The notes beneath the pieces were generated by a model. The model worked only from the letters and a program-made list of their open reading frames with translations. It made no database searches and had not been told where the DNA came from. Shown piece by piece: positions 12,766-17,079 of a DNA stretch of 18,929 nucleotides. Made by a program: the position numbers and the translations under genes. This DNA comes from a virus, in UHGV virus genome UHGV-1353644. One strand, given 5' to 3'. Each line of letters opens with the position of its first letter. Position 1 is the stretch's first letter.

Positions 12766-12797
12766 AATTATACCACATCCTTGTGGTAAAGTAAACT
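12766..12797 (-). promoter_or_regulatory. T4 early-type promoter for rIIA.1-rIIA-rIIB, abutting the gp39 stop codon
   Basis: Minus strand: GTTTAC (complement of 12791-12796, overlapping the gp39 TAG by 1 nt), 18 nt ending ATGTGG, TATAAT (complement of 12767-12772). Confidence 0.6.
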
Positions 12798-14613
12798 ACT
12801 GGCTCATCCATTCTTTGCGAAGGTCAGCATTATCTCCCATGAGCATTTCAAAAAGCTCTTTCCAATTCTCAGGAAGTTTAACAACATCATATACTGGATT
12901 TTGAATCATCTCACGATATTCAGATTTTTCCAAAGAGCCAAGTCCTTTAATATAACGGATGCTATGTTTAGGTAGAGCATCTTTGGCACTCTCATATTCA
13001 GCGACTGTATAAAACCATTCTTGTTTTTTACCGACCTGAGCGATGATTACAGGAGTTTTGACAAAGCGAATTCGCCCCTGTTCAAACAGTTCTGGCCAAT
13101 TACTAAAAAATCCAAGCAGAGAAGGATAAATGCTTCCTAGACCATCATGGTCAGCATCAGTCATAATAGCAATATTACGATAATTCAAGTTTTCAGCTTT
13201 TTCACCAAGAACTAGACCAGTGATTGCGCAAATATCAAATAGTTCTTTGTTTTTAAGCATATCGGCATATGACATACCCCAGCTATTAAGAACTTTACCA
13301 CGCAATGGATAACCACCATGAAGTTCTTTATCGCGAACATCAATAAGATATCCGATAGCAGAATCACCCTCAGTTAAGAACAATGTAGTGTCAGCATCTT
13401 TACCACAAAGATTCGCTTTAATATGTTTATGAACCTTAGCTTTAGAAGCCTTTTTAGCTGCTTTAGTTTCTGCTGCTTTTTCTGCCGCCAATTTACGAGC
13501 TAATGCTGCTTCAATAATTGGCATCAAAATTGCTTCATTATTTAGAATAGCGCGTGAAATCTTTTTAGCATCAAGTTGAATATGACTACGAATTTCACCA
13601 AATGGAGAAGTCAAACGCTCTTTAGTTTGAGAATCAAATCGCATGTTTTTCATATCACGAACAAACATAACGATAGTCAAACATTCTTTAACACGTGCTT
13701 TAGTTACATCAATTTTGAACTTACGTTTGATTTGTGGAATAAGGTCTTCACAAATATCATCCATAACACAATCAATGTGATGGCCACCATTCTTAGTGTG
13801 AATGTTATTCACGTAAGTTAATTGACGAAAACCATCCGGTGAACGACCAACCGCAATAGAACAATTTTCTTGCTCTTGAACAATAGCATGCTCATCATAT
13901 TGGCGTGCATATTTCTTAAAATTACCCTGAACCTTTTTACCATTAAAGGTAAATTGAATATCAGGATAAACTACAGCAAGTGTCTGGAGACGATCTAGTG
14001 TAATGTCAAGATAAACTTGGGACAGCTCATTAGTTTCAAATGACATAAAATCAGGAATGAAAGTAACACGAGTTCCTTTCCATTTTCCAGGAATATCTTC
14101 CCATGATTTATTTTCCATGCCATTTGAACAACGAACTACAATATTATTTTGACCATCACCAGTTTCACCGACAAACATCACAGAAAAAATGTTTGTCAAA
14201 CTAGAACCAACACCGTTCATACCACCAGTGACGCGTTCTTTATCATCACCGAAGTTACCACCAGCTTTTGGAATAGTCCAAGCAGCTACCGGACCAGGAA
14301 TTTCTTCGCCGGTAGGTGTTTTAACCATCGCTTGTGGAATACCACGACCGTTATCTTCAACTGTTACTTGATTGTTTTTAATAGTAACATTAATTTTATT
14401 CGCGAATTTAAACTTAGTACGAATACCTTCATCTACTGAGTTATCGATAATTTCATCAATAAGCTTAACAAGACCAGGTACATACTGAACACTTTCCCAT
14501 TTACCAAACAGAAAGCGCTCATGCATTTCATTAGCGGAAGAGCCAATGTACATGCCGCTACGCTTTTTGATATGTTCAATATCGCTCAGAATTTTAATTT
14601 CATTCTTAATCAT
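12796..14613 (-). CDS. 39: DNA topoisomerase II large subunit gp39, unsplit GyrB-like form (605 aa from ATG)
   Basis: GHKL ATPase motif VEDNGRGIP, Toprim motifs LTEGDSA and DADHDG, and PLRGK. One continuous 605/606-aa frame, as in T2-type phages where genes 39 and 60 are fused. ATG at 14613 has SD GAGGA at good spacing (the track starts at GTG 14616). Confidence 0.95.
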   Translation of the reverse strand: MIKNEIKILSDIEHIKKRSGMYIGSSANEMHERFLFGKWESVQYVPGLVKLIDEIIDNSVDEGIRTKFKFANKINVTIKNNQVTVEDNGRGIPQAMVKTPTGEEIPGPVAAWTIPKAGGNFGDDKERVTGGMNGVGSSLTNIFSVMFVGETGDGQNNIVVRCSNGMENKSWEDIPGKWKGTRVTFIPDFMSFETNELSQVYLDITLDRLQTLAVVYPDIQFTFNGKKVQGNFKKYARQYDEHAIVQEQENCSIAVGRSPDGFRQLTYVNNIHTKNGGHHIDCVMDDICEDLIPQIKRKFKIDVTKARVKECLTIVMFVRDMKNMRFDSQTKERLTSPFGEIRSHIQLDAKKISRAILNNEAILMPIIEAALARKLAAEKAAETKAAKKASKAKVHKHIKANLCGKDADTTLFLTEGDSAIGYLIDVRDKELHGGYPLRGKVLNSWGMSYADMLKNKELFDICAITGLVLGEKAENLNYRNIAIMTDADHDGLGSIYPSLLGFFSNWPELFEQGRIRFVKTPVIIAQVGKKQEWFYTVAEYESAKDALPKHSIRYIKGLGSLEKSEYREMIQNPVYDVVKLPENWKELFEMLMGDNADLRKEWMSQ

Positions 14614-14640
14614 CACTTATCCTCGTTTGGTTTCGGGAAT

Positions 14641-14682: not shown

Positions 14683-14943
14683 TTATTTAAAACGAATAGT
14701 CGAATCCTTAAAGAACAGCCCAGAACATACTGTTCCTTCTACTTTCTGCCCGGTAGGTCCAATAGCACGAAATCCAGTATGTTGGAAATCATTTTCAGAG
14801 CAACCAAACCAATTGTATCCAGTGATTTCAATATTAGTAAACCCACTTGAAGATAAAACTTTGGTTGCATTATCAGCATCAGTACATCCTACTAAAGATA
14901 CTGCTAATACTAATGCCGCGATAGAACGATTAACATATTTCAT
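14683..14943 (-). CDS. Predicted small lipoprotein (86 aa from ATG)
   Basis: Translation MKYVNRSIAALVLAVSLVGCTDADN... has a signal peptide with lipobox LVGC and two further Cys in the mature part. ATG at 14943 (the track extends to TTG 14955). Confidence 0.6.
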   Translation of the reverse strand: MKYVNRSIAALVLAVSLVGCTDADNATKVLSSSGFTNIEITGYNWFGCSENDFQHTGFRAIGPTGQKVEGTVCSGLFFKDSTIRFK

Positions 14944-14947
14944 AATT

Positions 14948-15322
14948 TCACTCAAATTTAATGGCTTGAAGGAGACTAATAATTCTTAAACGGCTTCTTT
15001 CATCTTTAACTGTAAAAGAAAGAGGGTCGCCAGATTTCATAGTGATAGTGCATTCAAAATCAAAATTTTCGGGAACTTCTTCGAAGAAGTCAAATTCTTC
15101 ATCATAAATTAGAACTTCACTCCGCAGACTGTGAAGAATTTTTCCAGCATTTCTGCTAGTTGCTGTACTAATCATCGTAACATTGCGACCTTTCATATCT
15201 TCAACGATAAATTCGCTTGTAGATATTACAGCATTAATAGAACCATTCCTGTGAATAGCAGACATTAGATATTTCTTTTCTTCGCCTTCGCGAATGCGAT
15301 ATTTCTTACCGATTTTAAACAT
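14948..15322 (-). CDS. Hypothetical protein (124 aa)
   Basis: ORF track; its ATG sits 2 nt after the stop of the zinc-ribbon ORF. Confidence 0.6.
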   Translation of the reverse strand: MFKIGKKYRIREGEEKKYLMSAIHRNGSINAVISTSEFIVEDMKGRNVTMISTATSRNAGKILHSLRSEVLIYDEEFDFFEEVPENFDFECTITMKSGDPLSFTVKDERSRLRIISLLQAIKFE

Positions 15323-15324
15323 AA

Positions 15325-15501
15325 TTATCCTTTAAGTAAGTCGTAAAATCCACCATTCACATGCTTAGGAGCAGAAGCCCGACGAGTAGACAAACGATGA
15401 CATTTAGGGCAAACATCATTTTCTCGTTCAGAAATCTTTTTAATTTTTTCATATTCATGCCCACAATCTTTAGATTGGCATTTATAATCATACATCGGCA
15501 T
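15325..15501 (-). CDS. FmdB-like zinc-ribbon protein (58 aa)
   Basis: My own translation: MPMYDYKCQSKDCGHEYEKIKKISERENDVCPKCHRLSTRRASAPKHVNGGFYDLLKG. Two CxxC pairs and an MP.Y.Y.C start typical of the FmdB zinc-ribbon family. SD AAGGAA upstream. Below the track cutoff. Confidence 0.6.
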   Translation of the reverse strand: MPMYDYKCQSKDCGHEYEKIKKISERENDVCPKCHRLSTRRASAPKHVNGGFYDLLKG

Positions 15502-15503
15502 AA

Positions 15504-15920
15504 TTATTCCTTAAAATGAGCTTTCAACATCTGATACAAAGACCATGCCTGTTCATTATTTTCAATAGTGACTTTCATTAAAGGAAAATCAGAAGATGTA
15601 TCAGTTACTGGTACAGGTTCTTCCTGCTCTTCGGCAGCCTGATATGGATTTCCCACTTCATCGAAGAACCCAGCTTCATTCGTGGAGAGCCAGATAAAGT
15701 TTTCATCAAGGATATCACCGCCTGTTGCGTATCCAACTGTGCCAGTAGATGTCACAATTTTAGTAGGACGCCCAAGATGGTCAACATCTAAAATTTTAAA
15801 AGGATGCATACCTAAACGCCGCGCATAGATTCCGTTATCAGTATGGTCTTTAATAAAATTTTCTTGAGCTTGTTTATTTTTAAATTGATACCATTTATTA
15901 ACTTCAAATTTAATAGCCAT
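15504..15920 (-). CDS. Hypothetical protein (138 aa from ATG), possibly goF-like by position
   Basis: ATG at 15920 preceded by SD GGAAGGA (the track uses an upstream TTG). Acidic central region. Size and position are close to recalled T4 goF; identity not verified. Confidence 0.55.
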
Positions 15921-17042: not shown

Positions 17043-17079
17043 GGGACCATTATACTCTGGTCCCAAGAGTTTGTAAACT
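17043..17079 (-). promoter_or_regulatory. T4 early-type promoter upstream of the motB-like gene, with a 7-bp-stem hairpin overlapping the -10
   Basis: Minus strand: GTTTAC (complement of 17073-17078), 18 nt, TATAAT (complement of 17049-17054). Inverted repeat GGGACCA / TGGTCCC (17043-17049 and 17058-17064) places the -10 in the loop. Confidence 0.55.

Follow-up and report, generated by a model that had tools for sequence, protein, structure and literature searches.

The window, the whole 18,929-nt stretch of UHGV virus genome UHGV-1353644 that we analysed, is a T2/RB51-like Tequatrovirus segment, and a 58-codon reading frame on its minus strand (15325..15501) is, judged by its sequence and its locus, the orthologue of T4 gene 39.2 (product Gp39.2, alias NwgI). 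We put at roughly three in four the probability that the encoded protein is a GroEL modulator orthologous to T4 Gp39.2, made early in infection and built from a zinc ribbon and a flexible tail. The gene is known and named, and the function of its T4 orthologue is published; the finding in the window is therefore correct and not new. Below we set out the evidence that the frame is a gene, that its product is a zinc ribbon of the FmdB type and that GroEL is its probable target, and we weigh this reading against the other functions that have been attached to the family.

Gene 39.2 in the window

The reading frame runs from an ATG to a TAA stop at 15327..15325 on the minus strand, and its product is MPMYDYKCQSKDCGHEYEKIKKISERENDVCPKCHRLSTRRASAPKHVNGGFYDLLKG. 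It exactly fills the space between two genes, as the sequence-only reading had observed: 2 nt separate the goF stop codon (15506..15504) from the 39.2 ATG, and another 2 nt separate the 39.2 TAA from the ATG of the downstream gene (15322..15320; 3′ junction ...AAAGGATAATTATG). The good Shine–Dalgarno sequence claimed in that reading is also present, as an AAGGA (15512..15508, minus strand) that lies 6 nt 5′ of the ATG and within the final codons of goF. The sequence at the upstream junction is ...TTTTAAGGAATAATTATGCCG (in longer form, ...CATTTTAAGGAATAATTATGCCG), and a junction of the form AAGGAATAAT(T)ATG is common to RB51, T4, IME08 and the window.

The DNA is 97.7% identical to RB51 gene 39.2, and the protein is 98.3% identical to that of RB27 and 82.8% identical to T4 Gp39.2 over 58 of 58 residues. 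T4 Gp39.2 shares with the window protein a length of 58 aa, the four cysteines, the KIKKISER motif and the APKHVNGGFYDLLKG tail, and the two genes occupy the same slot after goF with the same start junction. Ten substitutions distinguish the proteins, most of them in the loop after C13 and in linker residues 37–43. The frame had been described as unannotated, which holds only for a size-limited ORF track; elsewhere the gene has long been named 39.2, and a coding sequence lies under the match in 29 of the 30 closest records (the best 30 of 335), the remaining one being wholly unannotated. The name 39.2 is used in the RB51, T2 and IME08 records, the resequenced T4 genome (MT984581.1) labels the 58-aa product 'gp39.2 hypothetical protein', and the RefSeq product name in many phage records is 'FmdB-like transcriptional regulator'.

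The T4 reference record itself (NC_000866.4, 5398–5839) annotates 39.2 as a protein of 45 aa only. Compared with resequenced T4 (MT984581.1) and all relatives, this record has one additional base and several point differences, and as a result the conserved C-terminal tail of 39.2 is lost from the T4 reference annotation. In the same record the adjacent 39.1 is also truncated at its N terminus, with loss of a lipoprotein-type signal peptide. The differences in 39.2 and 39.1 are probably old sequencing errors, and they account for the label 'putative 5.1 kDa protein' in some records.

Evidence for a genuine gene

Gene 39.2 is a genuine protein-coding gene under purifying selection. Its length alone is weak evidence, because the window holds 45 ATG-initiated ORFs of at least 58 aa, compared with 9.2 ± 2.7 in shuffled sequences. 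The frame is short and the genome AT-rich (35.8% GC), with moderately long ORFs common there, which is what could be said for a chance ORF or a non-functional remnant. Against this, the 177-base sequence is matched in 335 phage records, all at 80% coverage or more (megablast), and the protein in 882 (tblastn), of which 853 keep it intact at 80% coverage or more; the hosts of the tblastn-matched phages include Escherichia, Shigella, Yersinia, Salmonella, Serratia, Citrobacter, Erwinia and Cronobacter. Selection on the protein is strong: pN/pS, computed as the proportion of nonsynonymous differences over the proportion of synonymous differences, is 0.08–0.22 in every pairwise comparison in a set that comprised RB51, T4, SHFML-26 and IME08, and third codon positions hold 20 of the 33 differences between the window and T4. 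The cut-offs of curated families are also passed, and the Shine–Dalgarno sequence and start context are conserved. Conservation and selection have thus effectively refuted the idea of a chance ORF or remnant, to which we assign a negligible probability.

The behaviour of the frame in relatives points the same way. Interruption in close relatives had been proposed beforehand as a sign against the ORF, and what we found is a frame that stays open in each relative examined while the other five frames contain 1–11 stops apiece; no relative examined has a stop-free alternative frame across 39.2, and among close relatives we saw frameshifts or stops in 39.2 only in the T4 reference record NC_000866.4. 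Two further ORFs overlap the gene, one of 44 aa on the minus strand (15357..15491) and one of 52 aa on the plus strand (15361..15519). Both were judged to be chance ORFs, since their frames gain stops in T4, IME08 and SHFML-26 and since the substitutions in the 39.2 frame are biased by codon position. Rfam gave no match across the whole window, so nothing suggests that an RNA element occupies the place of the ORF.

A zinc-ribbon core and a conserved tail

Profile searches place 39.2 in the FmdB/Zn_ribbon_8 zinc-ribbon family, in agreement with the sequence-only reading, which had called the protein FmdB-like and had proposed a Pfam search. That search returned PF09723 (Zn_ribbon_8) over residues 1–41 at 46.8 bits against a cut-off of 34.4, and NCBIfam model TIGR02605 (FmdB family zinc ribbon) matched residues 1–43 at 46.3 bits against a cut-off of 31.3. 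The protein also matched phrog_1076 (4.4e-12), which carries the PHROG label 'FmdB-like transcriptional regulator' and the category 'transcription regulation'. HMMER, run exhaustively against 1.84 billion representatives, found 175 matches at E ≤ 0.001, and a profile made from 34 homologues reached 2,767 proteins, with PF09723 on all of those listed.

The zinc-ribbon core comprises residues 1–40 (15382..15501, minus strand), as defined by PF09723, TIGR02605 and the strands of an AlphaFold2 model, and contains the conserved motifs MPxYDYKC and KIKKISER. Its predicted metal ligands, all encoded on the minus strand, are C8 (15480..15478), C13 (15465..15463), C31 (15411..15409) and C34 (15402..15400), from which we infer that the ribbon binds one Zn2+. 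Two CxxC pairs had been described; the second pair does have this spacing, but the first is Cx4C. Across the 34 homologues, C8, C31 and C34 are 90–100% conserved and the second ligand is either Cys or His, with His replacing Cys in the alignment in Krischvirus and Muldoonvirus. The spacing of the knuckles differs among lineages (CxC, CxxC, CxxH, Cx4C and Cx5C), and four ligands are kept; the check suggested earlier, on conservation of the four Cys across T4-like phages, is thus borne out at the level of the metal ligands across the T4-like genera.

Read from the N terminus, the alignment shows an MPxYxYxC start, the Cys or His second ligand, KI+KIsER, a CPxC knuckle, a linker and SAP-x5-GG[FY]YD. 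This last motif lies in the C-terminal tail (residues 41–58, RASAPKHVNGGFYDLLKG; 15328..15381, minus strand), which is conserved in sequence and predicted to be flexible; the motif is kept in Tequatrovirus, Dhakavirus, Krischvirus, Moonvirus and Muldoonvirus, and bacterial FmdB proteins have a related one, G-[GS]-G-[FW]-[YF]. Gene 39.2 thus has in common with the FmdB family the MPxYxYxC start, two metal knuckles and a G-G-F-Y motif after the ribbon. It differs in its first knuckle, which is Cx4C and not CxxC, and in lacking the serine/glycine-rich extension present in most bacterial members, which are 90–125 aa long.

An AlphaFold2 model computed from the 34-sequence alignment has a mean pLDDT of 77.8, with about 85 for residues 1–40 and strands at residues 3–8, 16–20, 28–30 and 37–40. 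Confidence falls in the tail, with block means of 63 (residues 41–50) and 57 (residues 51–58). A Foldseek search of the PDB with this model returned nothing significant (best E = 0.46), and the non-significant neighbours are generic zinc ribbons: RbpA, the MCM N-terminal zinc module, RpoP/Rpb12, eL43 and Nop10. By sequence, a single-sequence search of the PDB gave weak matches to bL31 only (E > 0.5). A profile search gave nominally significant matches to designed C2H2 poly-zinc-fingers (2i13 and 1mey), which we rejected as spurious because they come from the YKCPECGKSF motif repeated across two adjacent fingers. The single-sequence and profile searches of the PDB together detected no solved structure of the 39.2 family.

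Neighbouring genes and transcription

Gene 39.2 is part of a tightly packed string on the minus strand, in the order motB, a 93-aa ORF, cef, goF, 39.2, a 124-aa ORF, 39.1 and a fused 606-aa gene 39. Its slot between goF and 39.1/39, on the same strand, is kept in Tequatrovirus and Dhakavirus; in Krischvirus Phi1, Moonvirus CF1 and Winklervirus LC53, 39.2 lies just 5′ of the gene for the topoisomerase large subunit. The gene goF (15504..15920, minus strand; phrog_622, 1.9e-40) was given an ATG start that overlaps the cef stop by one base, as in RB51. On the other side of 39.2 is the 124-aa ORF (14948..15322, minus strand; RB32ORF005c type, RB51ORF005), which also matches phrog_622 (6.9e-29). 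The two flanking proteins are only 23% identical (BLASTP E = 0.036), and their shared match means that 39.2 is flanked by two distant paralogues of the goF family. T4 differs from the window phage here in having no such goF-like gene between 39.2 and 39.1, so that 39.1 directly follows 39.2.

Further downstream, the small product of 39.1 (14683–14943, minus strand) begins like a lipoprotein (MKYVNRSIAALVLAVSLVGC...). The gene's entry in the ORF list starts at a TTG farther 5′, whereas the RB51 start, an ATG, yields 86 aa. The gene for the large subunit of topoisomerase II (12796–14616, minus strand) is the fused 606-aa 39+60 of the T2/RB51 type, and not the split form of T4 with its gene 60.

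The best sigma-70-like match in the region, TTTACA-17-TATAAT (11 of 12 positions; 17049–17077, minus strand), lies just 5′ of motB and, as a match to the consensus only, is a candidate early promoter of the motB–cef–goF–39.2 string. Promoter and terminator sites showed no enrichment over shuffled sequences, and a search for a promoter-like site specific to 39.2 gave weak matches only. No terminator was found between motB and 39, which is consistent with co-transcription.

A probable modulator of GroEL

The function of 39.2 has been studied in T4. In the primary paper, Ang & Georgopoulos (Genetics 190:989, 2012) reportedly described the modulation of GroEL by T4 Gp39.2 (NwgI). The gene is said to have been isolated initially from RB69, the homologues from T4, RB43 and RB49 to behave alike, and the protein to suppress temperature-sensitive groEL/groES alleles and to be lethal when overproduced. 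In Georgopoulos's own account, T4 Gp39.2, of 58 residues, modulates GroES/GroEL in a subtle way by moving GroEL towards an open conformation able to bind host and phage co-chaperonins, and T4 deleted for 39.2 is completely blocked on specific groEL mutant hosts (PMC5153855). A further article repeats the account of T4 Gp39.2 as a GroES/GroEL modulator (PMC4396842), and the T4 gene is listed among the early transcripts (PMC9697503, supplementary file 4).

The GroEL role of 39.2 comes from one laboratory's work on T4-group proteins, and we found nothing in the sequence of 39.2 itself that points to GroEL. The window protein is expected to act as T4 Gp39.2 does on the grounds of 83% identity, the same ligands, the same tail and the same locus. 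The protein would shift host GroEL towards an 'open' form that binds a co-chaperonin, either host GroES or phage Gp31; open GroEL would then aid the GroEL-dependent folding of phage proteins, and 39.2 would broaden the range of host GroEL variants that permit phage growth. Folding of the T4 major capsid protein requires GroEL together with the phage protein Gp31; a protein that is made early and readies GroEL for the phage co-chaperonin is in keeping with this dependence. The generic guess of the sequence-only reading, that the protein binds nucleic acid or host proteins, agrees with the published GroEL modulation in its second part and not in its first.

The phage co-chaperonins (T4 Gp31, RB49 CocO and the Cpn10 proteins of jumbo phages) serve the host machine, GroEL, that 39.2 is reported to act on and that the phage retools to fold its own proteins. 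They nevertheless have no relationship to it in sequence or fold, and Gp39.2 is reported to be a modulator and not a lid-forming heptameric co-chaperonin.

Alternative functions

A common label implies a different protein, a DNA-binding transcriptional regulator: 'FmdB-like transcriptional regulator' is the name in many RefSeq phage records and in phrog_1076, and some of the non-significant structural neighbours (RbpA, RpoP and Rpb12) are zinc ribbons associated with RNA polymerase. The label, however, comes from the namesake of the family; no test on a phage protein lies behind it. The 'regulatory protein' in the name of FmdB derives from the fmdB gene in the formamidase locus of Methylophilus methylotrophus, and we know of no demonstration that FmdB binds DNA. 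The Pfam, NCBIfam and PHROG searches show a zinc-ribbon module only, with no DNA-binding domain, every structural match has E > 0.4, and both family members for which we found experimental accounts, T4 Gp39.2 and Ruc, act in protein folding. A role for 39.2 as a transcriptional regulator therefore strikes us as highly improbable.

The comparison with Ruc raises another option, to which we give somewhat more weight while still thinking it improbable: that 39.2 is a stand-alone, redox-switched holdase and not an allosteric modulator of GroEL. Oxidation of its cysteines would release zinc and convert the protein into a chaperone that prevents aggregation and hands its clients to DnaK or GroEL. 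Ruc of M. tuberculosis (Rv0991c, annotated as FmdB family) resembles 39.2 in carrying a zinc ribbon with four cysteines at the N terminus and, after it, a C-terminal region for which no structure is predicted, and both proteins are tied to proteostasis machinery. With a gene of 333 bp, Rv0991c has about double the length of 39.2, and the likeness is one of family annotation. Ruc coordinates one zinc with its cysteines, its C terminus is disordered, and oxidation switches on its holdase activity (PMC7448276); the tail of phage 39.2 is likewise of low confidence in the AlphaFold2 model.

Several differences nevertheless set 39.2 apart from such a holdase. Ruc is an oxidation-activated holdase that works with DnaKJE, whereas phage 39.2 reportedly acts on GroEL. 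The tail of 39.2 is just 18 residues long, conserved in sequence and furnished with aromatic residues, whereas Ruc tails are variable, hydrophilic and 7–61 residues long; the need for the C-terminal domain in Ruc activity was tested by Becker et al. (PMC7448276). The replacement of one Cys ligand by His in Krischvirus and Muldoonvirus fits a thiol switch poorly, and the T4 phenotypes, reportedly specific to particular groEL/groES alleles, point to a direct effect on the chaperonin (PMC5153855). A search of defence and anti-defence libraries (PADLOC) gave nothing meaningful for 39.2. Modulation of GroEL, as reported for T4 Gp39.2, is the most likely role.

Chaperone links elsewhere in the family

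In four related jumbo phages, a remote Zn_ribbon_8 homologue of 39.2, 67–69 aa long, lies directly 5′ of a Cpn10/GroES gene (61–67 bits). In Klebsiella phage fENko-Kae01 (OR228459.1, 201593–202086), the pair consists of a 67-aa zinc ribbon (PF09723, 39.3 bits) and a 96-aa Cpn10 (66.6 bits), and the stop of the first gene overlaps the start of the second; in Escherichia phage G17, Yersinia phage fHe-Yen9-03 and Erwinia phage pEa_SNUABM_12, the gap between the two is 1–24 nt. The zinc ribbons of these three phages are only 50–57% identical to that of fENko-Kae01, and the pairing is kept across this divergence. As the four phages are related to one another, the linkage may reflect a single evolutionary event, with the arrangement ancestral. 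The adjacency is consistent with the reported GroEL function of T4 Gp39.2. In several jumbo-phage records the zinc-ribbon protein goes under the name 'type I antifreeze protein'.

The linkage to Cpn10 is not general in the family, since none of six other sampled Zn_ribbon_8 genes (in a Serratia prophage, three phage-like contigs and two bacterial loci) has a chaperone neighbour. In the three phage-like contigs the zinc ribbon follows a primase, a Mu-F head gene or a DNA polymerase gene. The window likewise has no chaperone gene beside 39.2, its neighbours being genes of the goF family, cef, 39.1 and topoisomerase. In the Serratia prophage (CP074147.1), a 55-aa 39.2-like protein with a GGYYD tail is encoded between endonuclease VII and the large terminase (GpA), and the neighbouring portal and capsid genes assign this copy to a head-morphogenesis module rather than to an early region. 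Among bacteria, Ruc co-occurs with dnaK, clpB, hrcA and, in some phyla, groES/groEL (PMC7448276).

A bolder proposal, which we regard as speculative and on balance unlikely, would extend the chaperone link to the whole FmdB/Zn_ribbon_8 family. Its members would be chaperone accessory factors, 39.2 would retune GroEL through its G-G-F-Y tail, and the jumbo-phage pair would be a kit for the takeover of GroEL. In thousands of genomes, bacterial and phage, the label of the family is 'putative regulatory protein'. We also considered the tail as a mimic of the GroES mobile loop, and set this aside as an idea of low probability. The tail bears only a loose resemblance to the mobile-loop core G-G-I-[IV]-L, with nothing in common beyond a G-G-hydrophobic-hydrophobic stretch, and mimicry is held low because that stretch occurs family-wide in bacterial FmdB proteins.

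Implications

The zinc-ribbon/Cpn10 pairing of the jumbo phages provides independent genomic support for the link between 39.2 and GroEL and offers a second system in which to study the mechanism. For phage 39.2, the product name 'FmdB-like transcriptional regulator' is probably misleading, and 'GroEL modulator Gp39.2/NwgI, FmdB-type zinc ribbon' would be a better one. More broadly, the size cut-offs applied in ORF tracks conceal functional phage micro-proteins such as 39.2.
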